Positions 39,890-55,434 of a DNA stretch of 56,708 bases are shown here, one piece after another. The notes below the pieces were generated by a model. The model saw nothing but the letters and a program-made list of their open reading frames with translations, ran no database searches and was not told where the DNA came from. The first letter of the stretch is position 1; every line of letters begins with the position of its first letter. Both the position numbers and the translations under genes were made by a program. Source of the stretch: an uncultured Bdellovibrionales bacterium (lineage in GTDB: Bacteria; Patescibacteriota; Minisyncoccia; Moranbacterales; GWC2-37-73); NCBI GenBank assembly GCA_964484505.1, contig CAZAFB010000008.1, positions 1 through 56,708 on the forward strand. The letters are read 5' to 3'.

Positions 39890-41803
39890 ATGTCACTTGA
39901 TGAACTCAATAAACATCTGCAAAGCAGGGATGATAGTGAAGATATCCATCGCCAGCACGATGTTGACGAATATAATCCCTTCGGGCAAGCGAATACCGAA
40001 GGAGAAAATCCTTTCTTGAAAGAACGTGAATGGAAAGAGCCTCAAAAAGGTTTGACTTCGAAACAGAAGAAAATTTTGAAGATAATCGGCATCATTGTCT
40101 CGGTTTTGATCGTGGTCGGACTTGGATGGTGGGGGTGGGAAAAGTGGAAAAAAGATTCTTTTCATGAAGATCGGGTAGTTGTTTCCATTGATGGCCCAAA
40201 AGATGCGGATAGCACGCAGACAGTGGAATATTTCATCAAATATGAAAATAACAATCGGATCACTTTGCGTGACGTGGAAGTGGTGCTGACATATGCGGAA
40301 AATTTTCAACCCATAGATAATGTCAATCTCAAATATCTCAGCAAATCTAGCAGCAAAGTATACGTGGGCGATATAAAGCCGGGAGCAAAAGCGGAAGTTC
40401 CGTTTAAGGGAATATTTTATGCACCTAAAGATTATCAAGTATATCTACGTGCGTCGATGGATTATTCGGTTTCCGGAAGGTCGGAGAAATTGCATTCCTC
40501 GGGACAACTGGGTGTAAATATTGATAATTCGCCTTTGCTTCTGGATGTGGTTGCACCAAGAGAGGCTGCAGATGGCGATAGTGTGGAATATGTCATTGAT
40601 TATAAGAATTTGGATGTGCGCTCTCTTGAAGATGTGCAATTGCGCGCCGAGTTTCCCCAAGGATTTCAACTGGTTTCTTCGAATCCAAATACTTCCGAAG
40701 GGGATAATGTCTGGTATATGGGCACATTGGAGGCTAATCAGGGAGGCAAAGTAAGAATACAGGGGAAATTGTCAGGAAGCCCTGATGATGGGAAAACCTT
40801 CAAATTATCTCTGGGAAAAATGGGAGATGATGGTAATTTTGTGGTATATAATCAACGAGTCGTTAACACAAGGATGGTAGTTGCAGCTCTTTCAATAAAA
40901 CAGTCGTTGGTTAACGGGGCAGAAAATGGCATAACCAAAGCAGGAGCAAATCTTTCCTACCGTATCAATTATGAGAATAATTCCAACATAGGAATGAGAA
41001 ATGCCATAGTAACCGTGGAGATAGACAGCAAAATTGTTGACTATTCGAAGTTATCTATAGACAGGGGTTCTTTTGATGAATCCAAAAAAACAATTTCTTG
41101 GAAAGCTTCAGATGTGCCGGAGTTGATTAATATACAGCCAAAAGGAAAAGGGGAATTGAAGTTTACCGTACCGGTATTGGAGATAATTCCAGTAACCGGT
41201 GTGCAAGATAAAAATTTTACCGTTCGCACAGTTGCGAAAATAGACAGTCCCGACATACCTTCAGTGGCAAGTGAAAATAAAATAATTGGCAGTAGCGCAA
41301 TGGAGCTTAAGCTTGGATCAAAAGTTATTATCGAGACGCTTGGGTATTATGAAGATGCCAATGTGGAAAATTCGGGACCTATGCCCTTGGAAGTTGGCAA
41401 AGAAACCACCTATACTATGCATTGGACCATATTTAATGTATCCAATGAGCTGCAAGATGCTGTTTTGACAGCCTCTATTCCTTCAGGATATCGTTGGACA
41501 GGCAAGACTTATCCGGAAAATGAACATGTGGAGTTTGATAGCAGGACAAACATAATTTCTTGGAGGGTGGGGGGTGTTAACCCTGGAGTAGGATTGCTTG
41601 AGCCGAAAAGAGAAGTTAGTTTTCAAATAGGCATAACTCCACAATCCAATCAGTCTGGGAGATCACTGACATTGTTGAATCCGGGAACATTCAAAGCAAA
41701 AGATGGTTTTACTAAGGAGGAGATAAACTTACAGATTCCCATGAAAGATATGCAATTACATGAAGATGTGAGTATTCCTCCCGATGGATATAAAGTTAAA
41801 TAA
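39890..41803 (+). CDS. Single-pass membrane protein with tandem Ig-like (DUF11-like) domains
   Basis: TM IIGIIVSVLIVVGLGWWGW, repeated Y.I.Y.N...L.DV...P.F modules; TGgTATAAT promoter at 39847-39855. Confidence 0.85.
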   Translation: MSLDELNKHLQSRDDSEDIHRQHDVDEYNPFGQANTEGENPFLKEREWKEPQKGLTSKQKKILKIIGIIVSVLIVVGLGWWGWEKWKKDSFHEDRVVVSIDGPKDADSTQTVEYFIKYENNNRITLRDVEVVLTYAENFQPIDNVNLKYLSKSSSKVYVGDIKPGAKAEVPFKGIFYAPKDYQVYLRASMDYSVSGRSEKLHSSGQLGVNIDNSPLLLDVVAPREAADGDSVEYVIDYKNLDVRSLEDVQLRAEFPQGFQLVSSNPNTSEGDNVWYMGTLEANQGGKVRIQGKLSGSPDDGKTFKLSLGKMGDDGNFVVYNQRVVNTRMVVAALSIKQSLVNGAENGITKAGANLSYRINYENNSNIGMRNAIVTVEIDSKIVDYSKLSIDRGSFDESKKTISWKASDVPELINIQPKGKGELKFTVPVLEIIPVTGVQDKNFTVRTVAKIDSPDIPSVASENKIIGSSAMELKLGSKVIIETLGYYEDANVENSGPMPLEVGKETTYTMHWTIFNVSNELQDAVLTASIPSGYRWTGKTYPENEHVEFDSRTNIISWRVGGVNPGVGLLEPKREVSFQIGITPQSNQSGRSLTLLNPGTFKAKDGFTKEEINLQIPMKDMQLHEDVSIPPDGYKVK

Positions 41804-41821: not shown

Positions 41822-43012
<1,191 letters not shown>

Positions 43013-43199
43013 TTCTTTGTCTTTTTTTTGACGAGTGGTATAATGAATTAGTGGATCTTTTGTTTACTTTTTCTGCAAAATAAAAACAAGGTTATCGTGG
43101 AAGCTAATCTTATAAAGTTCAAATATATTTAGTATAGTTGTGGCCCTGGCTTACTTGGCAGGATTGGTTTTTTGCGACCATTTTTCTTAAAAAACGAAA

Positions 43200-43592
43200 A
43201 TGAATAACTTTTTTGAAAAAATAAAAAAGATTAAATTTATTCACCGTGAAGCAATGCAAAAGATTGGCGAGTGGAACGGTTTTTCGCGAACGCGCGAATT
43301 GCCTGGCTTGTTGCATAGTAAAATGCAAGCTTTTTTCGATGGCAAGGGACCGCTGGTAGTTGCAGTTTTTATCGCAGTTGCATCAATAGCGGCATATTTG
43401 ATAATCAAAAAAAACAATATTGAAGCCGCCGGGTATGCTTGGCAACAAACCGATTGGTCCGGTGGCACTGACGAGAGCAATTTTCCAAACCATCAAAACA
43501 ATCAGACCGGCTGGACGAAATATTATTCTGCGGGAACGGGTTCTATTGATGTATCAAATAATGAGTTGAAACTCAATAGATATTCGAATTAA
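43200..43592 (+). CDS. Membrane-anchored small surface protein (130 aa)
   Basis: TM LVVAVFIAVASIAAYLII, then AAGYAWQQTDWSGG...GWTKYYS. Confidence 0.75.
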   Translation: MNNFFEKIKKIKFIHREAMQKIGEWNGFSRTRELPGLLHSKMQAFFDGKGPLVVAVFIAVASIAAYLIIKKNNIEAAGYAWQQTDWSGGTDESNFPNHQNNQTGWTKYYSAGTGSIDVSNNELKLNRYSN

Positions 43593-43615
43593 AATAGTTT
43601 GAGAATAAAAATAAA

Positions 43616-46600
43616 ATGAAACCAAGGGCGAATCATTTTAAGAGACATTTTTTCCTAGGCGCAAGCTTTTTCGCGATGGTTTTTTTGTTTTTTTCTCATA
43701 ATGCTAACGCGGCAACCATTACTTGGGATGGATCATCCTCAACTGATTGGGCTACTGCAGCAAACTGGGTTGGCGATGCGGTGCCTACCTCCACTGATGA
43801 CGTGGTTATCAATGGCAGTTATACAAATGCTCCCATCCTCAATCTTTCCGCCGGTGCGGTTACGGTAAATTCTCTCTCTGTCGGATCAAGTGCAACATCG
43901 GTGGTGACCGTTTCCAATGGAGATATCGATACCAAAAAACTTATAGTTACGGGAGATGTAACGATCGGAGCAAGCGGAACTTTGACTCACACAGCCAATT
44001 CCAGCGCTGAGACACACAGACTTTCTTTGCAGGTAGGGGGCAACATGACGATAGTTTCAGGTGGCTCAATTAGTATCAACAGCAAAGGTTATACAGGCAC
44101 AAGTGGTAATGGTCGTGGTCCAGGTGCCGGAGGGGGAGGCGATATTAATCAGCGTGGTAGTGGTGGGGGTCATGGCGGCAAGGGCGCTAGCACTACAACG
44201 CATGCAGGCGGTACCACTTATGACTCCATAACACAGCCTGCAATGATAGGTTCTTCGGGCGGAACTTGTTCTCGTGCAGCTTATGGCGGTGCTGGCGGTG
44301 GCGCTGCAAAAATTGTGGTAGGGGGAACATTAACTTTGGAAGGAGCATTGACGGCAGTGGGTGGCAATGGAATTACTGATAAGTGTTCCGGCGGTGGTTC
44401 GGGAGGAGCTATTTGGGTTGTTGCTGGAAATTTAACAGGTGCTGGATCGATTAATGCAAATGGAGGCACTTCATATAACAATGATTTAACTTCTGCCAGC
44501 GGTGGCGGTGGTGGAAGAATAGCAATTGAATATACCACAAGTTCTTTTTCTGGAGCCATTACCGCTTTTGGTAAGACCGGCTATGCCTATGGAGGTGCGG
44601 GAACAATCTATTTGAAGCAGGGAACAAACAATGGCGATCTTATTGTTGATAATAATTCAGTGGCTGGTGCGGATACGCTGCAGCTTGCCGGAACTAACTT
44701 CACTTTTGATAATGTAACAATTACGAAATCGGCAAAATATGTAATCCCGGATACTTCCAGCTTGGCAGCTTCTGTAAGTCTCTCCGCAAATTCAGTTGAC
44801 GCAACGATAACTGTTAACAGCGGTGGCTCAATGACATTACCCGCCAGTCAAAATTCTCTAGCTTATTTTTCCATAGCCAATAGCGGAACAGTCAATGTCT
44901 CGCAATCAAATTTTTCTATTTCCAACGGAACAATTACGAATAACGGAACAATAACGGGCATATCGAACTTAACTTTGTCATCAGTTACTTTCTATCAAAA
45001 CGGAACGCTTACTGGAATAACTGATCTTATTGTCGGCGCGTCATCAACTTTTGAATTTCAAAATCTTACACCCTCAACACCTTTCAATTTAAATAGCTTG
45101 ACTATTCAAAGCAGCGGAGTTTTAACGCATAAAGGAAATTCTTCAACAGAAGCGTATACTCTTAATTTGAATATTTCCGGCAATCTAGATGTGCAATCTG
45201 GCGGTTCGATTAATCTGAACAGCAAAGGTTATACAGGCACAAGTGGTAATGGTCGTGGTCCAGGTGCCGGAGGGGGAGGCGATATTAATCAGCGTGGTAG
45301 TGGTGGGGGTCATGGCGGCAAGGGCGCTAGCACTACAACGCATGCAGGCGGTACCACTTATGACTCCATAACACAGCCTGCAATGATAGGTTCTTCGGGC
45401 GGAACTTGTTCTCGTGCAGCTTATGGCGGTGCTGGCGGTGGCGCTGCAAAAATTGTGGTAGGGGGAACATTAACTTTGGAAGGAGCATTGACGGCAGTGG
45501 GTGGCAATGGAATTACTGATAAGTGTTCCGGCGGTGGTTCGGGAGGAGCTATTTGGGTTGTTGCTGGAAATTTAACAGGTGCTGGATCGATTAATGCAAA
45601 TGGAGGCACTTCATATAACAATGATTTAACTTCTGCCAGCGGTGGCGGTGGTGGAAGAATAGCAATTGAATATACCACAAGTTCTTTTTCTGGAGCCATT
45701 ACCGCTTTTGGTAAGACCGGCTATGCCTATGGAGGTGCGGGAACAATCTATTTGAAGCAGGGAACAAACAATGGCGATCTTATTGTTGATAATAATTCAG
45801 TGGCTGGTGCGGATACGCTGCAGCTTGCCGGAACTAACTTCACTTTTGATAATGTAACAATTACGAAATCGGCAAAATATGTAATCCCGGATACTTCCAG
45901 CTTGGCAGCTTCTGTAAGTCTCTCCGCAAATTCAGTTGACGCAACGATAACTGTTAACAGCGGTGGCTCAATGACATTACCCGCCAGTCAAAATTCTCTA
46001 GCTTATTTTTCCATAGCCAATAGCGGAACAGTCAATGTCTCGCAATCAAATTTTTCTATTTCCAACGGAACAATTACGAATAACGGAACAATAACGGGCA
46101 TATCGAACTTAACTTTGTCATCAGTTACTTTCTATCAAAACGGAACGCTTACTGGAATAACTGATCTTATTGTCGGCGCGTCATCAACTTTTGAATTTCA
46201 AAATCTTAACGCTTCTACGCCTTTTAATCTTAGCAATCTCACGGTCCTAAGTGGAGGAACAATAACTCACAAAGCAAATTCCTCAACAGAAACGTATACC
46301 TTGAACTTGAATATTTCAGGTGATTTTGATTTGCAATCCGGAGGAGCGATAAGTCTTAATGGTAGGGGTTATGTCGGGAAAAGTGGTACGGGATATGGTC
46401 CGGGTGCTGGTGCAGGCGGTGATTTAAATGCTTATGGCGCCGGTGGTGGATATGGAGGTAAGGGAGGAAACGGAAGAGCGGGCTTAGTTGGGGGGTCGCC
46501 GTATGGATCAATTGTACAACCTGTAAATATTGGTTCATCAGGTGGAGCAGCAACAGCAACATCAGGATCTGGCGGTGGTGCTGTAAAGATAATTGTCGGA

Positions 46601-49600
46601 GGACTTTTTAATATTAACGGAACGATTTCCGCTAATGGCACCAACGGGCTGACAAATGATAGATCCGGTGGCGGTTCCGGGGGAGGAATTTGGATTAACG
46701 CGAATACCATAGGGGGAGGGGGTTCAATTTCAGCCAATGGGGGAAACGCTTATAATACGTATGGAGCTGGAGGCGGAGGTGGTGGTCGTATTGCGGTTGA
46801 ATATCTAAGCAGTACTTTTAGCGGCACTTATTCATCTTCCGGAGGCACGGGATATAATGCCGGAAATGCCGGTACTATTCGCACAGGCTCTCTTTCTGCG
46901 GAAGTATTATCCTCCCCCTATGATTCCGGAAGTGGACAAAATGTTATTGCTAAGCTTCAATGGACGGAAACACTGCCTGCGGGTACGGATGCGAAATTTC
47001 AAATCAGAACAGCCCCTGATAATGGCGGAGCACCAGGAACCTGGACTTCTTGGATGGGTCCCAATGGTACTTCCGGAACATATTTTACCGATCCATCAGG
47101 AGGGGAGGATATTCCTGCCGCTTTGGAAGATGGCGCAAACGATCAATGGATGCAGTACAGGGTTTTGTTGAGCAGTCCCGACCTTTCAGTCAATCCGGTT
47201 GTTGGCGATGTATCATTGTTTTATGTGGTAAATCAGCCGCCTAGTTTTGATGCCACTTTTGGTACCGATGGAATCAATCTTTCACAAGTATCAAGCTCTG
47301 TCGATCCGCAATGGGGCAAGATGAAAATAGAATATGCGGTGCGCGATGTCGATACTACTTCCGGAACGGTAACTCAAAATTACGCAACCCCTTCTTTCGA
47401 ATATTCTTTCGATGGTTCCAATTGGACAGCGGTCAATTCGGCGTATGTGACATATTCCGCGCCGGCGCAAGGCGATGTCGCTGACGTTAACGGCGATGGC
47501 AAGATGGATAACAAAATGTTGGAAGGAAGCTATCTGACATATGCAGCGTATTGGAACGCTAAGTCTCAAATTCCGGAAACATATTCCGAATCCATTCGCG
47601 TAAGGATTACCCTTACTGACAATGAAATAGCCAACAGTACTGTGCAAGCTATTGGAAATATAATTAGCGTAGACACGAAAAACCCGACATTGGCCAGTGT
47701 GCCGATGCATGTGCATGCCAATTCTGTGCCTGCTTCAGTTTCATCTGATGTAACAGATGATAATTCCTTGCAGATGAGAATCGGCTTGGCAACGGATATT
47801 TCCGATGCTTCTTGGGAAAGCTATGCCGCCAGCAAACAGCTTGCGCTGGCAACCAATCCCGATATTGTCTATGCTCAATATCGCGATGCTTTTGGTAATT
47901 CCAGTGTTATTTTATCAGCTCAAACGCCTGAGCAGCCGGCGACAGTAATGATTCAGGATACTTCGAACATGCACAATGACCTTAATGAATATAGGCTTTT
48001 TGTGGCATGGAAAACGATCGCTACGCCAGAAGTGGGATTTGGTTCATATTATGTGTACCGTTCGGAAAATCAGACAGACTGGACTCATGTAGGAACCGTG
48101 AATGAAAGGCTGACCAACTATTATGGTGACAATTCCGTGCAGGGAAATGTGAATTATTATTATCGTGTAGCATCCGTAGATAGTAGCGGTGATATATCAT
48201 ATGTTTCAGCAATCGTTAACGGAGTGGCTAACGGTAATGTCGATGCGGGAGAGGGAGGCGGAGGAACGGGCGAACAACCCCCGGTAATTTCCAATGTAAC
48301 CGTGGACAATATTACGCCTACTAGCGCGCAGATAAACTGGACAACTGACGTTATAGCAACTTCCACAGTGGGATTTTCCACTCAACCTTCACATTTCGAA
48401 AATGAAGTAGGATCAGGATCCATGGTTACATCGCATAGCGTTACTTTGAGCAGTCTTACTCCCAACACTCAATATTATTTCCAAACAAAGTCGGCAAATG
48501 CTTCGAATGCTTTAGCTGTCGACACCAATGGAGGAAATGGCTATACATTTTCTACTTCAGCTGGCGACAGTACTGCTCCAATAATTTCCAATATCACAGT
48601 TGCGAATACGACTGCTTCGACCGCAACAATAACCTGGGATACCAATGAAGCTGCTACTTCCTTTGTGGAATATTCAAAAACGAATGGATTTTCCACGGGA
48701 GCGCAATTTGGAGATGTTGCGATGACCACAAGCCATAGTGTAACTGTGCCGTCTTTGGAACAAGGAACAACTTATTATTTCAAGGTCCGCTCCAAAGATG
48801 CGGCGAATAATGAAGGAATATCGGCACAAAGCAGTTTTGATACGTTAGTCAGCGGGGATGTGACATCTCCGCAAATAAGCGGTTTGTCTTCCACACCATC
48901 TTTCAATAGCGCTACCGTAACTTGGACTACCGACGAGGATGCGACATCCTATGTTGAATATGGCTCGAACACATCCTATGGTCGTATTTATGGGGACAAT
49001 AATCCGGTAAAATCACATACGGTTCAGCTTCCCTATGATCTTTCTTCCGAACAGTCATATCATTTCAGAGTCAGATCATTTGACGGTTCGTATAACGAAG
49101 CAATTTCTTCCGATAATACTTTTACGACAACTGTAAATCCGGCAGATTCCACAGCGCCGTTGATTGCTAATATCAACATCGGCACACCAGACAGGGACAG
49201 CGTGACTGTAACTTGGAATACGGATGAATCATCAACGTCATATGTCGGTTATTCCAGCGATGGGGGTGATACTTTTTCCGAGCAAGGCTACTCCACTTTA
49301 ACAACATTCCATAGCGTAACTCTGGCCGGTCTTACTCCCGGTACGACATATCTGTTGAAGATTTCCTCGGCAGATGCTTCCGGCAATAAAGCTACTGATG
49401 ACAATGCTGGTTCTTATTATCAAAGAGCAACAGCTCCCGGTCCAGTACCGCCAGTATTCAGCTCCGTATCTTCATCGAATCTGGACGAACATCGCACGAC
49501 TGTTACCTGGAGCACGGATCTCTCTTCAACTTCGCTTGTTGAATATGGTTTGGATACTAACTATGGTTCCGTAGCTGGCAAGCTCGATGATAAGACAAGC

Positions 49601-51838
49601 CATTCGGTTACTCTGGAAGGATTATTGCCAAGCACTACTTATCATTTTCGTGTGCGTTCAACGGATGAGGTAGAGGGTGTCTCCGGTGATTATACTTTCA
49701 CTACCACAGCCGCACCGGACACTCAGGGTCCGGCAATAAGCGCGATATCATCAACGAACATCAGCAAGGACGGCGCAAGGATAACATGGACAACTGATGA
49801 AAATTCCAATTCACTTGTTTCCTATGGTCAATCATCGGCATACTCTATGGTTGCTGGTGACCGCAGCACCATGGTTACTTCGCATGCTGTCGATCTGGAT
49901 CGCTTGTCTCCGAGCACAACATATCATTACCAAATTACATCCACGGATTCAGTCGGAAACACGGCAAATTCTTCAGATCAAACACTCACTACAATTGCCG
50001 ATACTTCCGATCCGGTAATTTCCGATCTGGAAGTGCGTAGCGTGTCAGAAACCGGAGCAGTCCTTTCCTGGAAGACTGATAAGCGAGCTTCCACAAAAAT
50101 AAATTATGGCGTCGATCATGATTTGGCAAGCAATTATGATGCTCAAATAATTTCAGATGTGCATATTATTTCGCTTACCGGGCTTGCTGGTGGTCAGAAA
50201 TATTATTTCAAGGCAGTTTCGGTTGATGAATATGGTAATAGTGTGGAATCAACAGAACAAACATTCACAACTCTGACTGATCCCGAGTTAAGTCATGATC
50301 CGCTGGAGAGCATAAGCGATATTCCAGATTCACCTGCTGTGCTTACTGATACGAAAGCTGTGATTGACTTTTCTACCGATCAGCGTGCGCAATGCTTTAT
50401 TGAATATGGTACTCAAGCAGGACAATATACGGAAGTTCCAATAGGGGAATCAACATATGATTCCAAACACTCCCTACATTTGGCTGGCCTTATATATCAA
50501 ACCAAATATTATTATCGAGTAACTTGTTCGGATAATTTGGATACGATCATCATGTCTGATGAACTCAGCTTTACGACTCTGGAAAAGCAAGTAGGGGAAA
50601 GCGAGACTGGAGAAGAAGAGATTGCTGATCGCATAGCGCCGTCAATCAGTAATGTTTCGGTAAAAACAGTGGCAAGTGAAAGCACGGTAATTTCTTGGGA
50701 TACGGATGAAAACGCCAACAGCATGATACGTTTTGGCACCAGTTCAACTTATGGCAAGATGACTGGTGATGATAGCGTCAATAAAGATTCAGCCAACTAT
50801 GTTCAAAAACACGAAGTGACCGTGGACAGGTTGGTTCCCGGAACAAAATATTATTTCGAAGCAATGTCCTTGGATACAAATGGGAATATCGGAAAATCTT
50901 CTCAGGGAACGTTTACCACAGAAGGAACATCGACCATATCATCGATAGTTTCAGAATCCAAAGAATTGGGCAAGGCGACAGTAATGTGGCTAACACAAGT
51001 TCCTGCCGATACTTACCTTGAATACGGCGTTTCCACTAAATATGGTTCTGAAATAAAACAAAGTTCGCTTACCAAGGAACATCAAGTGGAGCTTTCTGGT
51101 CTTAAAGGCGGTTCGATATATCATTTTCGAATTAAAGGAACTGATGCTGAGGGAAATATTTATACTTCGGCTGATTCCACTTTTGCGCCAAAATCTCCGC
51201 CAAAGGTTCGTGATTTGCAAGCAGTGCATGTTTCTGAACATTCAGCAACAATCACTTTTACAGCAGATGTTCCAGTGACAGCAACCGTAAACTATCAGGA
51301 CACACGCAAGGAGAAAGAGGCGCAAAGCAAAGGTAATCCGAATTTGGGAACCAAGCAGGAGATAATCTTGAATGATTTGGAATCAGGGCTTACTTACTCG
51401 TATGCCGTAACAGTGCGCGACGAGAATGGTCTGGAGACAATATCTGAAGCGAAAACTTTTGTTACCGGCAAGGACACTACGGCGCCGCTTATCGATCAGG
51501 TAAAAACCGAATCTGCTCTGACTCAAAACGACAAAGTGCAATCAATTATCAGCTGGAAAACTGATGAGCTGGCGACAGGAGCTCTTGTGTATCGGGAAGG
51601 TAAAAATGGCGAGGAAAAAGAAATTAAAGTTTCGGACGTTTTGTCACAACAGCATGTGGCGGTGGTTACTTCATTCAATCAGGGTTCAGTTTATTATTTT
51701 AGGGTAAAAGCTGTCGATGCTTCCGATAATGAGGCGGTTTCTTCAGATTATGCATTATTAACACCTAAAACAAAGGAGAATATAGTGCAGGTAATAATTT
51801 CTAATTTCTATGATATATTCAGATGGACAAGGAGATGA
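43616..51838 (+). CDS. Giant secreted surface protein/adhesin (2740 aa): Gly-rich beta repeats plus about 12-13 FN3-like domains
   Basis: Signal peptide ending ANA-A; GGGHGGKG / GSGGAIW / GGGGRIA repeats; DVNGDGKMD Ca-binding-like loop; repeated P.IS.V...A.I.W.TD...S.V.YG...H.V.L..L.P.T.Y.F. Confidence 0.93.
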   Translation: MKPRANHFKRHFFLGASFFAMVFLFFSHNANAATITWDGSSSTDWATAANWVGDAVPTSTDDVVINGSYTNAPILNLSAGAVTVNSLSVGSSATSVVTVSNGDIDTKKLIVTGDVTIGASGTLTHTANSSAETHRLSLQVGGNMTIVSGGSISINSKGYTGTSGNGRGPGAGGGGDINQRGSGGGHGGKGASTTTHAGGTTYDSITQPAMIGSSGGTCSRAAYGGAGGGAAKIVVGGTLTLEGALTAVGGNGITDKCSGGGSGGAIWVVAGNLTGAGSINANGGTSYNNDLTSASGGGGGRIAIEYTTSSFSGAITAFGKTGYAYGGAGTIYLKQGTNNGDLIVDNNSVAGADTLQLAGTNFTFDNVTITKSAKYVIPDTSSLAASVSLSANSVDATITVNSGGSMTLPASQNSLAYFSIANSGTVNVSQSNFSISNGTITNNGTITGISNLTLSSVTFYQNGTLTGITDLIVGASSTFEFQNLTPSTPFNLNSLTIQSSGVLTHKGNSSTEAYTLNLNISGNLDVQSGGSINLNSKGYTGTSGNGRGPGAGGGGDINQRGSGGGHGGKGASTTTHAGGTTYDSITQPAMIGSSGGTCSRAAYGGAGGGAAKIVVGGTLTLEGALTAVGGNGITDKCSGGGSGGAIWVVAGNLTGAGSINANGGTSYNNDLTSASGGGGGRIAIEYTTSSFSGAITAFGKTGYAYGGAGTIYLKQGTNNGDLIVDNNSVAGADTLQLAGTNFTFDNVTITKSAKYVIPDTSSLAASVSLSANSVDATITVNSGGSMTLPASQNSLAYFSIANSGTVNVSQSNFSISNGTITNNGTITGISNLTLSSVTFYQNGTLTGITDLIVGASSTFEFQNLNASTPFNLSNLTVLSGGTITHKANSSTETYTLNLNISGDFDLQSGGAISLNGRGYVGKSGTGYGPGAGAGGDLNAYGAGGGYGGKGGNGRAGLVGGSPYGSIVQPVNIGSSGGAATATSGSGGGAVKIIVGGLFNINGTISANGTNGLTNDRSGGGSGGGIWINANTIGGGGSISANGGNAYNTYGAGGGGGGRIAVEYLSSTFSGTYSSSGGTGYNAGNAGTIRTGSLSAEVLSSPYDSGSGQNVIAKLQWTETLPAGTDAKFQIRTAPDNGGAPGTWTSWMGPNGTSGTYFTDPSGGEDIPAALEDGANDQWMQYRVLLSSPDLSVNPVVGDVSLFYVVNQPPSFDATFGTDGINLSQVSSSVDPQWGKMKIEYAVRDVDTTSGTVTQNYATPSFEYSFDGSNWTAVNSAYVTYSAPAQGDVADVNGDGKMDNKMLEGSYLTYAAYWNAKSQIPETYSESIRVRITLTDNEIANSTVQAIGNIISVDTKNPTLASVPMHVHANSVPASVSSDVTDDNSLQMRIGLATDISDASWESYAASKQLALATNPDIVYAQYRDAFGNSSVILSAQTPEQPATVMIQDTSNMHNDLNEYRLFVAWKTIATPEVGFGSYYVYRSENQTDWTHVGTVNERLTNYYGDNSVQGNVNYYYRVASVDSSGDISYVSAIVNGVANGNVDAGEGGGGTGEQPPVISNVTVDNITPTSAQINWTTDVIATSTVGFSTQPSHFENEVGSGSMVTSHSVTLSSLTPNTQYYFQTKSANASNALAVDTNGGNGYTFSTSAGDSTAPIISNITVANTTASTATITWDTNEAATSFVEYSKTNGFSTGAQFGDVAMTTSHSVTVPSLEQGTTYYFKVRSKDAANNEGISAQSSFDTLVSGDVTSPQISGLSSTPSFNSATVTWTTDEDATSYVEYGSNTSYGRIYGDNNPVKSHTVQLPYDLSSEQSYHFRVRSFDGSYNEAISSDNTFTTTVNPADSTAPLIANINIGTPDRDSVTVTWNTDESSTSYVGYSSDGGDTFSEQGYSTLTTFHSVTLAGLTPGTTYLLKISSADASGNKATDDNAGSYYQRATAPGPVPPVFSSVSSSNLDEHRTTVTWSTDLSSTSLVEYGLDTNYGSVAGKLDDKTSHSVTLEGLLPSTTYHFRVRSTDEVEGVSGDYTFTTTAAPDTQGPAISAISSTNISKDGARITWTTDENSNSLVSYGQSSAYSMVAGDRSTMVTSHAVDLDRLSPSTTYHYQITSTDSVGNTANSSDQTLTTIADTSDPVISDLEVRSVSETGAVLSWKTDKRASTKINYGVDHDLASNYDAQIISDVHIISLTGLAGGQKYYFKAVSVDEYGNSVESTEQTFTTLTDPELSHDPLESISDIPDSPAVLTDTKAVIDFSTDQRAQCFIEYGTQAGQYTEVPIGESTYDSKHSLHLAGLIYQTKYYYRVTCSDNLDTIIMSDELSFTTLEKQVGESETGEEEIADRIAPSISNVSVKTVASESTVISWDTDENANSMIRFGTSSTYGKMTGDDSVNKDSANYVQKHEVTVDRLVPGTKYYFEAMSLDTNGNIGKSSQGTFTTEGTSTISSIVSESKELGKATVMWLTQVPADTYLEYGVSTKYGSEIKQSSLTKEHQVELSGLKGGSIYHFRIKGTDAEGNIYTSADSTFAPKSPPKVRDLQAVHVSEHSATITFTADVPVTATVNYQDTRKEKEAQSKGNPNLGTKQEIILNDLESGLTYSYAVTVRDENGLETISEAKTFVTGKDTTAPLIDQVKTESALTQNDKVQSIISWKTDELATGALVYREGKNGEEKEIKVSDVLSQQHVAVVTSFNQGSVYYFRVKAVDASDNEAVSSDYALLTPKTKENIVQVIISNFYDIFRWTRR
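44078..46208 (+). repeat. Tandem duplication, period 1140 bp, with a 991-bp identical block
   Basis: 44078-45068 matches 45218-46208 on line-by-line reading; antisense ORFs 44281-44559 and 45421-45699 are identical. Confidence 0.95.
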
Positions 51839-51886
51839 TTGTTCATGATTGATGTGTTATAATAAAAAAGAAGTTGAAAAAAACAA

Positions 51887-53197
51887 ATGGCTGACCCAAA
51901 CATAATCGTAGATCAATTACGTGTCATATATAATCAGGGAAAATCAAACGAGGTCCGTTCTCTTGACGGTGTGAGCGTGAAGATTTTTCCCGAGGAATAT
52001 GTGATCATTTTCGGACCTTCCGGTTGCGGTAAGTCCACTTTGCTCTATGGAATTTCCGGATTACAAGCGCCTACATATGGCGATGTTGTGGTGAATGGTA
52101 AAAATTTGGCGAAGATTACAAAAAAAGAAGCAGTGGAATTTCACCAGTCAGGAATTGGCATGATTTTCCAGGCTTTTTATCTCATACCAACGCTTACGGT
52201 TTGGGATAATGTGTGTTTGCCGAAAGTTTTTCGCGGAGAGGAGCTCAAACAGCGCAAAGTTGAAGCCATGAAACTGCTCCATCGTTTCGGTATCGCCGAA
52301 CAGGCCGATAAGTTTCCAAGCCAACTTTCCGGTGGACAGAAACAGCGTGTGGCCATAGCAAGATCTTTGGTTAATAATCCACAGATAATTTTGGCAGATG
52401 AGCCAGTGGGAAACTTGGATAGTGAATCTGCTCAGAATGTGTTGGAAATATTGCAGGAACTCAATACGGTCGACAAAAAAACGGTGATCATGGTTACGCA
52501 CAATCCAGAGCATCTTTTTTATGCAGACCGTATTATTCACATGAAAGACGGCAAAGTGGTTACGGAAGAAATAAATAGGGAAAAACGTCCGGTTAGTGAG
52601 ATTAAGAAAGAGGTAATGATGACTCCGGAAGATATTTCCAACGAGCTCAGAATTTTGTCGAGAACTTTCAAAAATCTTTCTTTGCAGCAAGTAGGCGTTT
52701 TGCTCATTCCTTTTAAGGCAAAACAACTACTTTCTCACATATTGTCGGAACTCATGGAAGAGCAGGTTTCAGTGGCGGAAGCCTTGTTGAAGGAATTGCT
52801 GTTCAAAAATATTGATCTAACCCGTTTTGAACAGAAACTGGACGATGATTATGAAGAAGGTGGTGCCGGATTTAACAAAAAAAGGGCAGTTTCTTTTGCT
52901 GATCGAGTAGAAAAAATACTTCTACAAGCTGAAAATATCAGAGAAAACACAGCTGAATCATCCAAGGCACTTGTCGAATATTTGAAAGAATTATTTAAAT
53001 TAAGACTTGATGAAGAACAGATGGAAAGATTGCGCTCATTTATTCAAATGCGCATTGACAATAGGATTGATCGCTTCGGTTTGACGCAGCGCCTGGATGC
53101 AAGCAAGTCGCTTGGCGGAGTCGGTTTGTATAAAGGTACTGCCGAGCGCGTGGTCAGGGAGGTGGAAATGGTGATGTTATTAAAATACTCAGCATAG
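51887..53197 (+). CDS. LolD/MacB-type ABC ATP-binding protein with a roughly 200-aa C-terminal extension
   Basis: GPSGCGKST, GMIFQAFYL, LSGGQKQRVAIAR, ILADEPVGNLD, MVTHN. Confidence 0.95.
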   Translation: MADPNIIVDQLRVIYNQGKSNEVRSLDGVSVKIFPEEYVIIFGPSGCGKSTLLYGISGLQAPTYGDVVVNGKNLAKITKKEAVEFHQSGIGMIFQAFYLIPTLTVWDNVCLPKVFRGEELKQRKVEAMKLLHRFGIAEQADKFPSQLSGGQKQRVAIARSLVNNPQIILADEPVGNLDSESAQNVLEILQELNTVDKKTVIMVTHNPEHLFYADRIIHMKDGKVVTEEINREKRPVSEIKKEVMMTPEDISNELRILSRTFKNLSLQQVGVLLIPFKAKQLLSHILSELMEEQVSVAEALLKELLFKNIDLTRFEQKLDDDYEEGGAGFNKKRAVSFADRVEKILLQAENIRENTAESSKALVEYLKELFKLRLDEEQMERLRSFIQMRIDNRIDRFGLTQRLDASKSLGGVGLYKGTAERVVREVEMVMLLKYSA

Positions 53198-53198
53198 T

Positions 53199-54413
53199 AT
53201 GAAGTTTATAGATTTATTCAAACTTTCAACCAGAATGTTTAAGGCGCGCACCTCGCGTACGCTTTTGACTATTCTTGGTATGAGTATCGGTATCGGAGCA
53301 ATTCTCTTTTTGGTTTCCCTGGGATACGGTTTGCAAAAAACTTTGCTAGAAAGAATTACGACTTCCGATTCGTTACTTACGCTTGATGTCACTGAAGCCA
53401 AATCCGGAGTCATAATGCTTGATGGTGAAAGAATAGGTAAATTAAAGCAGATGAGCGGCGTTACGGAAGTAAGTCCCGCATTTCAATTAACTGCACAAGG
53501 CCACTTGGAAGATTTATCAGCCGATCTTGTTTCTTTTGTATCTACACCTTCTTATTTAAAGCTTGGTGGATTTAAGGCAACGCAAGGAGTACTTCTTTCA
53601 GACGATGTTCCAAACGGAATAGTCATCAGTAGTGCAGTGGCTCAAGTTTTTGGCAAAAGTGCGGAAGAAATGATTGGCAAAGAAATGACTTTTTCCTTTT
53701 TCATACCAAAGGAGAATAAATCTTCCGAAGGGGATGCTGATTCACAAATAGAATATGATCGTACCGAAGGCAAAAATACCTATAAGATAATAGGTATGGT
53801 TGGAAATGAAGAAAATGTGGTTTATATAAATTCAGAGTCTCTTAAAGATTTGAATATTCAAAGATATTCGCAAGTTAAGGTCAAATGCGCTTCCAATCAA
53901 GAAATGTCGTTTATTCGCGACGCTATAATCAATGATGGGTTGTTGGTGTCTTCACTTTCAGATACTGTTGATCAAGCAAACAAAATTTTTAGCATAGTGC
54001 AGTTGATCCTGATGCTTTTTGGAGTAATTGCACTGGTTGTTTCAGCAATTGGTATGTTCAATACGATGACCATAGCACTTTTGGAGCGTACAGAGGAAAT
54101 AGGTATCATGAAATCAATTGGGGCATCAGATATGAGTATATCGATTATGTTTTTTATGGAATCAGCAATCATGGGCTTTTTGGGTGGACTTGCCGGTGTT
54201 ATGATAGGTTTTCTAGGGGGGATATCTTTCAACTGGTTGATTAATTTTATTGCCATTCGTTTCGGAGGGGAGAAGGTGACTCTTTTTTACAGTCCGCTTT
54301 GGTTTGTGCTTGCCATTATCGCCTTTTCTGCAGTGGTTGGTCTTTTTACTGGCCTTGTGCCGGCAAGGAGAGCGAGCAAGATTGATCCATTGGACGCACT
54401 TAGATACAAATAA
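53199..54413 (+). CDS. MacB/FtsX-family ABC permease
   Basis: RTLLTILGMSIGIGAIL, large extracellular domain, IGMFNTMTIALLERTEEIGIMKSIGA, PARRASKIDPLDALRY. Confidence 0.95.
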   Translation: MKFIDLFKLSTRMFKARTSRTLLTILGMSIGIGAILFLVSLGYGLQKTLLERITTSDSLLTLDVTEAKSGVIMLDGERIGKLKQMSGVTEVSPAFQLTAQGHLEDLSADLVSFVSTPSYLKLGGFKATQGVLLSDDVPNGIVISSAVAQVFGKSAEEMIGKEMTFSFFIPKENKSSEGDADSQIEYDRTEGKNTYKIIGMVGNEENVVYINSESLKDLNIQRYSQVKVKCASNQEMSFIRDAIINDGLLVSSLSDTVDQANKIFSIVQLILMLFGVIALVVSAIGMFNTMTIALLERTEEIGIMKSIGASDMSISIMFFMESAIMGFLGGLAGVMIGFLGGISFNWLINFIAIRFGGEKVTLFYSPLWFVLAIIAFSAVVGLFTGLVPARRASKIDPLDALRYK

Positions 54414-54491
54414 TGAATTATGAAGTAAAAATTAGGAATTAAGATAAAAGGAATTGCATCTTTCATAATTCATAAATCATAATTCATAATT
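54412..54491. repeat. ATGAATT/AATTCAT heptamer quasi-palindromic element
   Basis: Left arm ATGAATTATGAA...AGGAATT, right arm TTCATAATTCATAAATCATAATTCATAATT. Confidence 0.75.
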
Positions 54492-54552
54492 TCCGGGCTA
54501 ATGTTGCCCCTTTTTTTATTTACGGTTATAGTATAGGAGAATCTGTGGGCTA

Positions 54553-54608
54553 ATTTTGTTCGTAGATTCGTCCGCCAGCTGGCGGAGTAATTCGTAGTTT
54601 CGTATCGG
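54553..54608. repeat. ATTCGTA arm with nested TCCGCCAGCTGGCGGA palindrome
   Basis: Palindrome at 54571-54586 is the same family as the insert in MITE copies 1 and 2. Confidence 0.7.
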
Positions 54609-54612
54609 TTTT

Positions 54613-55434
54613 ATGAAGTTACTAGACGGAAAAGGATTATCTGAGAAAATTCTTGATGATATATGTTCAAAAGTGCGCAAAGGAGGGGAGCATCCTCATT
54701 TGGCGGTTTTTCTCGTGGGGGACGATCCAGCATCTCATCTCTATGTGTCTCTCAAAGAAAAGGCTGCCAAGAGTGTGGGTATTGACGTTTCGCTATACAA
54801 ATTTTCTGCTAAGGATAAACAAGAATCTGTTTTAGAATGCGTGAAAATTATGAGTAATGATGACGAGGTTGATGGTATTTTGGTGCAATTACCTCTCCCT
54901 GAGGGTTTTGATACCGAATCTATCATAGGCGCTATTGCACCAAGAAAAGATGTGGATGGATTTTCCTCGGATAGCGGTTTGGTGCCGGTTTTTCCCAGGG
55001 CGATTCTGATGCTTATTCAAAGCAGCGGGGTGAAATTGGAGGGCAAAAAAGCCTTGGTTATTGCAAATTCCGATGAATTTGGCAGGGCAATGAGCGAGAT
55101 GCTCAAAGGTGAAAAAATGGTCGTGGAATACATTTTGGCTGCTGATTTGCCTTCAAATCTTGGGAAAATCAAGGCTGCTGATGTCGTGGTGAGCGCTGTG
55201 GGCTCGCCAGGGCTGCTTCGGGGTGAAATGTTCAAAGATGGCGCTATTGTTATTGATGGTGGGATTGAAAAAGTGGATGGAGTTACAGTGGGAGATGTGG
55301 ATTTTGCCTCAACAGAGGAAAAAGAATGTTTTCTTTCCCCGGTTCCTGGCGGTGTCGGCCCAGTCACAATCGCCTGTCTTTTGAAAAATGTCTATCTGGC
55401 ATTTAAGGCTCAACAAAAGGAAAAGAGTAATTGA
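54613..55434 (+). CDS. folD: Bifunctional methylenetetrahydrofolate dehydrogenase/cyclohydrolase
   Basis: LLDGK, VGDDPASHLYVSLKEK, DGILVQLPLP, KDVDG, SPVPGGVGPVT. Confidence 0.96.
   Translation: MKLLDGKGLSEKILDDICSKVRKGGEHPHLAVFLVGDDPASHLYVSLKEKAAKSVGIDVSLYKFSAKDKQESVLECVKIMSNDDEVDGILVQLPLPEGFDTESIIGAIAPRKDVDGFSSDSGLVPVFPRAILMLIQSSGVKLEGKKALVIANSDEFGRAMSEMLKGEKMVVEYILAADLPSNLGKIKAADVVVSAVGSPGLLRGEMFKDGAIVIDGGIEKVDGVTVGDVDFASTEEKECFLSPVPGGVGPVTIACLLKNVYLAFKAQQKEKSN

Follow-up and report, generated by a model that had tools for sequence, protein, structure and literature searches.

In this article, we focus on a giant surface protein and on the ATP-binding cassette (ABC) transporter encoded directly behind it, and we particularly consider the short C-terminal tail through which the two may be functionally connected. 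Their genes lie in a stretch of DNA of 56,708 nucleotides (nt), which we call the window (positions 1 to 56,708 of the forward strand of contig CAZAFB010000008.1, assembly GCA_964484505.1) and whose source is placed by GTDB in the Moranbacterales, within the Patescibacteriota. Four open reading frames (ORFs) follow one another there, all on the + strand and separated by gaps of only 23, 48 and 1 nt. Their coordinates, strands and gaps are all as they had been placed in a preliminary description of the window, which took the four for a dedicated surface-display or anchoring system in which the C-terminal helix of the giant is the handling signal. Homologues of all four genes exist in other assemblies, so the four ORFs are real genes. 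The genes and the parts of the giant are the following.

43200-43592, + strand: ORF of a 130-amino-acid (aa) protein, from the ORF list.
43616-51838 (stop codon counted), + strand: giant surface protein of 2740 aa, from its ORF, Pfam matches and 84 homologues found via its C-terminal region.
43616-43711, + strand: Sec-type signal peptide of the giant, residues 1-32 (MKPRANHFKRH-FFLGASFFAMVFLFF-SHNANA/A), read from the translation.
43712-47035, + strand: head of the giant, three Gly-rich units of ~380 aa each, from repeat comparison.
47036-48295, + strand: middle region of the giant, with no family assigned and containing DVNGDGKMD, read from the translation.
48296-51790, + strand: stalk of the giant, twelve FN3 (fibronectin type III) domains, residues 1561-2725, from a self-built hidden Markov model (HMM) and Pfam.
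51740-51835, + strand: conserved tail SSDYALLTPKTKENIVQVIISNFYDIFRWTRR of the giant, in which an LLTP hinge and a basic pair precede an amphipathic helix of 17 residues that ends in F.W, conserved in related loci and described by a profile.
51887-53197, + strand: ABC ATPase of 436 aa, from its ORF and PF00005.
53199-54413, + strand: permease of 404 aa, from its ORF and its MacB_PCD and FtsX domains.

The leader is the sole transmembrane (TM)-like segment of the giant. Elsewhere in the protein, the best 19-mer has a hydropathy score of 1.3, and no LPXTG-like motif was found in its 2740 residues, so that the earlier remark that it has no TM or LPXTG anchor stands. The other features first described for it are also borne out, namely the Sec leader, the Gly-rich repeats, the DVNGDGKMD loop (of the DxNxDGxxD type, residues 1290-1298, nt 47483-47509) and the FN3 array, whose domains number 12 with the self-built HMM (i-E 1e-13 to 6e-36) where 12-13 had been estimated. 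Pfam finds fn3 (E 2.1e-37) and Pur_ac_phosph_N (E 1.1e-68) in the giant, which with its tandem FN3 domains in a secreted protein belongs to the FN3-array surface proteins.

The giant ends in ...ENIVQVIISNFYDIFRWTRR, exactly as had been quoted, and this ending is one instance of a tail whose consensus over the last ~30 residues reads DYALLTP-K.K-ENI.Q.II.NF.DIF.W. The helix of this tail has a hydrophobic moment of ~0.5 (0.54 in the window) and a mean hydrophobicity of 0.24-0.38 (0.24 in the window), while the 19-mer hydropathy of the tail, 0.13, is not TM-like; neither the polarity nor the length of the helix allows it to cross a membrane. In 113 distinct tails, which were chosen by a motif pattern so that the conservation values are somewhat inflated, the T, I, F and W positions are conserved at 90-98%, with N, Q and D retained at polar positions. 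That polar positions of the helix (N, Q, N, D) are conserved would point to its being recognised by a protein, more than to plain partitioning into lipid. With a 32-position profile of the tail, 620 cluster representatives were retrieved at E<=1e-3 from a library of 1.84 billion proteins, and the position of the match is strict: of the 150 best, 148 match at their extreme C-terminus, and the proteins are mostly 1000-3800 aa long. The tail is better conserved than the body, since the last FN3 domain and the tail remain 54-75% identical even between giants in which the bodies are ~40% identical or give no alignment, and endings of the window type are found in related loci, such as DYALLTPKTKENIVQIIINNFFDIFKWVNK (L005), DYALLTPKQRQNIIQVIIGNFTDIFGWAKF (L009) and DYALRTPQQTQNIVQIIVGNFQDIFQWAKL (L044). 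This is particularly clear in the 84 proteins found via the C-terminal region of the giant: their heads differ (RCC1, Kelch, DUF2341, LamG, CBM), and the members from Patescibacteria share the tail motif. The tail is thus a strongly conserved C-terminal module on giants with unrelated heads, and this supports the handling-signal idea. At the equivalent position, the FN3 giants from outside the Patescibacteria found in the same search carry a Gly-rich motif followed by a TM segment and a basic tail, endings that we take to resemble signals of the GlyGly- or PEP-CTERM type. The curated CTERM sorting models of NCBIfam gave no match to our tail, even at E<=10.

When the linkage is viewed from the tail, most tail genes adjoin an ABC pair. 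Scanning metagenomes for the last FN3 domain and the tail, we obtained 79 loci, 73 of them with a recognisable tail and 61 with at least 1.5 kb downstream; the sample was drawn by patterns of the last FN3 and contains near-duplicates, which were dereplicated at 90% tail identity. A MacB-type ATPase starts 6-881 nt past the stop codon of the giant in 38 of the 61 loci, usually with the permease next to it, and in five more the ABC pair lies within 10 kb (directly upstream of the giant in two of those). After the 90% clustering, 26 clusters are adjacent, one is mixed, five are near and 14 are not adjacent. This linkage holds across deep divergence, since it persists where the ATPase is 34-50% identical to that of the window and where the tails have drifted, for example to ...TESIVDVIFKNFDDTFNFIQNIR and ...SLLQYIIQILEERFSW. 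Four of the five giants that were looked up individually also adjoin an ABC, in the order giant, ATPase (433-445 aa), MacB permease. These are found in the near-identical strain L164 (giant P0121), in a Saccharibacteria genome, in a 28%-identical relative in which a response regulator stands between, and in a different Moranbacteria context. The association of tail genes with the ABC, first noticed at a single locus, is therefore recurrent. The fifth giant, P0160 (2944 aa), is not next to an ABC; as a separate observation, the signature of a diversity-generating retroelement (bAvd and a reverse transcriptase, L168:1437-3452) lies ~1.5 kb upstream of it.

The type of nucleotide-binding domain (NBD) and the 4-TM permease place the ABC pair in the type VII ABC superfamily. 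Its parts, together with a candidate promoter element, are the following.

51855-51863, + strand: extended -10-like element TGTTATAAT in the 48-nt gap between giant and ATPase, by consensus match only.
51887-52579, + strand: NBD of the ATPase, residues 1-231, MacB/LolD-like (PF00005, E 2.9e-35).
52580-53197, + strand: C-terminal extension of the ATPase, residues 232-436 (205 residues), all-helical in the AlphaFold2 (AF2) model.
53199-54413, + strand: type VII ABC permease with TM1, a MacB-type extracytoplasmic domain (~residues 42-262) and TM2-4 (FtsX domain), from Pfam and hydropathy.

The AF2 model of the NBD superposes on the ABC domain of E. coli MacB (5lj9) with a TM-score of 0.93 at 40% identity. 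In the permease, Pfam finds PF12704 (MacB_PCD) at residues 21-243 (E 9.6e-18) and PF02687 (FtsX) at 272-397 (E 1.4e-18), and there are four hydrophobic peaks, at residues 23, 263, 324 and 369; its closest solved chains are YtrF 9o9x (E 2.4e-32, over the FtsX domain), MacB 5lil, Spr0695 5xu1 and LolC/E/F. The pair does not correspond to any of the classical members that we tried. It is not MacB proper, as the genes are split here and NF007826 gives 203 and 78 where its cut-off is 966, and no HlyD/MFP or TolC gene was seen among the neighbouring genes examined. Nor is it LolCDE, with scores of 204.2 for TIGR02211 and 70.7 for TIGR02212 against equivalog cut-offs of 307.75 and 362.45, or FtsEX, with 178.6 for TIGR02673 and 50.9 for NF038347 (FtsX_Gpos) against 264.85 and 225, and with an extracytoplasmic domain of the MacB_PCD type.

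The extension of the ATPase is a feature of its own. It contains two internal repeats, LD-x5/6-GGxG...A...E, which are 29% identical over 56 aa (E 9e-5), and modelled alone it is predicted confidently (AF2 pLDDT 87.9, pTM 0.80). No relative of its fold was found in the PDB (best E 1.7, TM-score <=0.26), the full-length model being matched via the NBD only, and against NCBIfam (maximum E 10) no convincing family emerged, with just two matches at E 0.16 and 0.34. It is conserved in the 433-447-aa ATPases that adjoin tail giants in other Patescibacteria. In three loci (L136:2752-5323, and also L137 and L138), the ATPase is read as two ORFs before the permease, a 226-aa NBD and a second one of 230 aa, whereas the near-identical tail locus L132 has a single ATPase of 443 aa; this comes either from a frameshift or from a helical extension that has truly become separate.

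The characterised type VII ABCs act with an extracytoplasmic partner or extract a membrane-embedded hydrophobic moiety, as in FtsEX-EnvC, LolCDE-LolA, MacAB-TolC and YbbAP-TesA (PMC12646458, PMC7668044), and by analogy either mode, actuation or extraction, might be open to a C-terminal amphipathic helix whose polar positions are conserved. The reading that we favour, at a probability of roughly 0.55, is a direct functional partnership between tail and ABC, in which giants exported by Sec are engaged by the type VII ABC through this tail. The giant would be exported by Sec through its N-terminal signal peptide, with an exchangeable Gly-rich head carried on the rod of twelve FN3 domains. The helix behind the LLTP hinge would then be the handle gripped at the outer face of the membrane by the neighbouring MacB/YtrEF-like ABC, docking either in the lateral cavity between the TM helices of the permease or on its extracytoplasmic domain. 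The ABC complex would keep the giant at the cell surface, and ATP hydrolysis in the cytoplasm, passed on through stalk helices, would serve to grip, reposition or release it. Any tail-bearing protein of a Moranbacteria genome, linked or not, would depend on one core ABC pair, which probably has a promoter of its own. We infer the physical contact between tail and ABC from the above, and its outcome may be anchoring, extraction or release, or actuation.

Several observations weigh against this reading. We scanned one genome per species and found 343 stretches that encode the ATPase subfamily, of which the best 80 were examined and 78 were informative. The ABC pair is thus present in at least 343 species representatives of the Moranbacteria, of which it is a core gene pair; ATPase and permease always stand together in the examined loci, and their surroundings vary. 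A tail giant lies directly upstream of the ATPase in only eight of the 78 loci (L005, L009, L012, L015, L040, L044, L051 and L061) and 5-7 kb downstream of the ABC in three further ones (L037, L067 and L078). The adjacency has a scattered distribution on the tree of the ABC pair, with 7-8 changes; sister species differ in it, and a clade of 25 species does not have it at all. Large secreted proteins devoid of the tail also stand beside the ABC, of 2495 aa in L004 and of 1120 aa (Fn3_assoc) in L001. From the side of the tail, ~30-38% of the genes precede unrelated housekeeping genes (FtsK/RodZ/RecA, Mur ligase, TrpRS), and only such genes, with no alternative partner, were found downstream of the unlinked ones. 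Some lineages pair the tail with short ATPases that do not have the extension, and the extension is therefore not needed for the pairing. The small number of giants adjacent to the ABC pairs of Moranbacteria means that the ABC has, or may have, a role independent of the giant.

These points leave the initial proposal partly supported. It had been set out that the proposal would fall if the ABC pair were usually found without such proteins and the tail were not conserved: in the Moranbacteria the pair does usually stand without an adjoining giant, and the tail is strongly conserved. The idea of a surface-display or anchoring system with the C-terminal helix as its signal thus keeps the support of tail conservation and of tail-to-ABC linkage, and loses the dedicated ABC, which is a core pair with a giant directly upstream in just eight of 78 loci, as well as the 130-aa member (see below). 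The key asymmetry is that most tail genes adjoin an ABC, while most ABC pairs of Moranbacteria have no adjoining giant, and this fits one core type VII ABC that serves tail proteins whose genes are often but not necessarily linked to it. The ABC pair probably has its own promoter, for which TGTTATAAT is the candidate in the window, and a TGnTA[TA]AAT match within 120 nt upstream of the ATPase, again a consensus match only, is seen in 30 of 78 related loci; a hairpin scan of the 48-nt gap between giant and ATPase revealed no terminator-like hairpin. One locus also keeps a trace of loss. Between a PilB/GspE-like gene and the ATPase of L065, a mini-ORF, MLNIIQIIISNFQDIFSWARFGS (L065:9691-9843), corresponds to the last 21 codons of a tail, while the remainder of the giant gene has disappeared. 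We take it as most probably the relic of a deletion, which indicates that the adjacency of giant and ABC existed earlier and was then lost there.

In the clade of the window, the gene order is RecO, a DUF11 protein, TGT, a variable slot, ATPase, permease, a second variable slot, FolD and LeuRS. The slot between TGT and the ABC holds, depending on the species, nothing, an ArsR-type regulator, the unrelated 2495-aa protein (L004) or a tail-bearing giant. It may be asked whether the adjacency is meaningless, the ABC being a housekeeping type VII transporter, perhaps a stand-in for some envelope function, whose flank is a permissive site for the insertion and loss of large surface genes. The mixed contents of the slot, to which the 1120-aa Fn3_assoc protein can be added, and the frequent gains and losses, even between sister species, speak for such a site. 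However, the pairing is found again in unrelated contexts and as far off as the Saccharibacteria. The order and orientation are nearly always kept, with the tail end facing the start of the ATPase, and a hotspot would select neither the tail nor this polarity; our sample also points to tail genes adjoining the ABC far more often than other large secreted genes do. We consider this explanation quite improbable. We give somewhat more credit, while still finding it unlikely, to a tail that works as a self-sufficient anchor. Its model is the C-terminal helix of E. coli PBP5, an amphipathic anchor that lies in the plane of the membrane. The ABC would then perform other envelope work, such as extracting or flipping a lipid or a wall precursor on which large surface proteins depend, and the linkage would reflect co-regulation with no contact. 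The moment of 0.5 and the mean hydrophobicity of 0.24-0.38 are indeed those of the surface-seeking class, the ABC is core in Moranbacteria, usually unlinked to a giant and probably under its own promoter, and YbbAP and LolCDE act on lipidic substrates (PMC12646458). Yet a lipid anchor needs a pattern of hydrophobicity only, whereas the identities of the tail residues, polar ones included, are kept across distant lineages, and an immediate adjacency of 59-62% over deep divergence exceeds what co-regulation usually maintains.

A third account, type I-like export of the giant by the ABC with the tail as secretion signal, is hardly credible. In the type I secretion of giant adhesins of the LapA and SiiE class, a giant repeat adhesin with an uncleaved C-terminal signal is encoded alongside an ABC, and the same three features make a likeness here that is superficial only. 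The signal peptide of the giant is clearly of the Sec type. The permease has four TM helices and an extracytoplasmic domain of the MacB type, which make it a type VII protein and no HlyB-type exporter, and no membrane-fusion or outer-membrane partner was found nearby. The Sec leader and the type VII permease thus set the giant apart from type I substrates and lead us to reject this route.

Regarding the head of the giant, its units, which are presumably beta-helical, have no match in Pfam; the first 1095 residues of the protein have no sequence match in the PDB and the first 395 none in NCBIfam. Units 1 and 2 share 991 identical nt (44078-45068 and 45218-46208) at a spacing of 1140 nt, that is 380 codons. 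In the DNA run X1, the contig of this 991-bp repeat has a depth of 153 against 61-71 in its flanks, ~2.2-fold, so the duplication is real in that population. The strain L164 (99% identical) has exactly one head unit fewer, its giant P0121 being of 2360 aa instead of 2740, which means that the length of the head differs between close strains.

The 130-aa ORF is best considered together with these heads. The protein has a basic N-terminus, a TM helix at residues 51-69 (Kyte-Doolittle 19-mer 2.66) and then a module A.Y.W.QTDWSGG...H..NQTGW..Y. It is also present in L164, and no homologue stands in the 80 related loci of other species, so that this membrane protein, first listed alongside the other three, is not a conserved member of the unit. 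Many other tail giants do, however, align with it within their N-terminal 30-250 residues (best P0132, 48% identity, E 1.5e-15), over both the TM helix and the A.Y.W.QTDWSGG...H..NQTGW..Y module. In the sister species L005, a module of this type is the in-frame start of the giant, and the homology between the giants of L005 and of the window begins at residue 1023 of the latter. The simplest reading of these alignments is that the 130-aa ORF is the severed canonical leader of the tail-giant family, left in another frame by a head swap, in which an incoming head with its own signal peptide would have displaced the old head and stranded the old leader as a separate ORF. The protein is thus probably not a component of the system. 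A role as adaptor was also considered and rejected, given its absence from the loci of 80 other species and its homology to the giants' own N-terminal leader.

Regarding the setting of the locus, the ATPase of the window is 66-83% identical to annotated proteins from metagenome-assembled genomes (MAGs) of Candidatus Moranbacteria or Moraniibacteriota, which makes the organism a Moranbacterium (Parcubacteria group, Patescibacteria), and the metagenomes with DNA near-identical to the locus come from biofilm, biogas and activated sludge. The MAG records of L005, L007, L015 and others are titled "uncultured Bdellovibrionales bacterium" despite a Moranbacteria-type locus, which looks like a labelling error. 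The region 42800-54800 is covered thinly and evenly by runs X25, X26 and X28, which are filed as RNA-Seq with genomic or metagenomic source labels and are unusable as evidence of transcription. Directly upstream of TGT, a DUF11/CLIPPER-like protein (39890-41803, 636-637 aa) recurs across the syntenic Moranbacteria loci at 40-75% identity and is probably another envelope protein. In the slot between TGT and the ABC, the secreted protein of L004 (L004:2475-9962) has no Pfam match and no tail, next to an ATPase 79% identical to that of the window. An ArsR/HTH_5 regulator of ~103-106 aa occupies it in Moranbacteria with no upstream giant (L001:9465-9776, L003:9529-9849), and in L165 a MerR-like gene of 65 aa precedes the giant.

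Coming back to the proposed engagement of the tail by the type VII ABC, two families of known systems provide analogues. FtsEX, with its partners EnvC, PcsB or RipC, would be the best functional analogue if the ABC grips and actuates: a split ATPase and a 4-TM permease with an FtsX domain engage a helical element of an extracytoplasmic partner and pass ATP-driven movement on to it, with no transport (PMC7668044, PMC10694151). The difference is that the partner of FtsEX is an activator of peptidoglycan hydrolases, while here it would be the C-terminal helix of an FN3 giant. If the ABC extracts or releases, the best analogues would be LolCDE with its lipoproteins and YbbAP-TesA, in which a permease of the same architecture acts on a hydrophobic handle that is embedded in the membrane and belongs to, or adjoins, an extracytoplasmic protein (PMC12646458). 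Their handles are acyl chains or lipids, in contrast to the peptide helix found here. The closest solved permease by sequence belongs to YtrEF of the monoderm B. subtilis (PDB 9o9x/9o9y), which also has split genes and a similar ATPase fold but no known giant partner and no ATPase extension. In contrast to bacteria with LolCDE, the Patescibacteria are not known to have an outer membrane or LolA. The function of YtrEF itself is still called enigmatic (PMC13729185).

The comparison can also be made with protein sorting. As in the LPXTG/sortase, PEP-CTERM/exosortase and GlyGly-CTERM/rhombosortase systems, a short conserved tag is found at the extreme C-terminus of large surface proteins that are otherwise unrelated. 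Unlike those signals, the tail does not consist of a motif, a TM segment and a basic cluster, and the machine to which it is linked is an ABC ATPase; no sortase-like enzyme was seen next to the tail gene. We would more tentatively propose, at somewhat less than an even chance, that the LLTP...NF.DIFGW helix is the tag of a sorting or anchoring pathway that acts after Sec throughout the Patescibacteria. The type VII ABC motor would hold there the role of sortase, exosortase or rhombosortase, capturing and holding the giants and using ATP to mount, move or release interchangeable adhesin heads. The cytoplasmic helical extension of many such ATPases could couple this action to an intracellular signal.

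No description of a cassette that combines a tail giant with a type VII ABC was found in the literature searched, the coverage of which was incomplete. Also new here are the finding that the ABC is core in Moranbacteria, the relic in L065, a head swap as the likely source of the 130-aa ORF and an ATPase extension with no relative of solved fold. A large part of bacterial diversity belongs to the Patescibacteria. They live attached to other cells, and their giants are devoid of the usual anchoring signals. The pairing of tail and motor recurs across these ultra-small bacteria and may represent an undescribed way to hold or handle giant surface proteins. If this is true, the type VII ABCs would have a partner of a new kind in a conserved C-terminal tag that is genetically linked to them, and maybe protein sorting a new route. 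The 32-position tag also gives a sequence handle on the surface-protein repertoire of any such genome.

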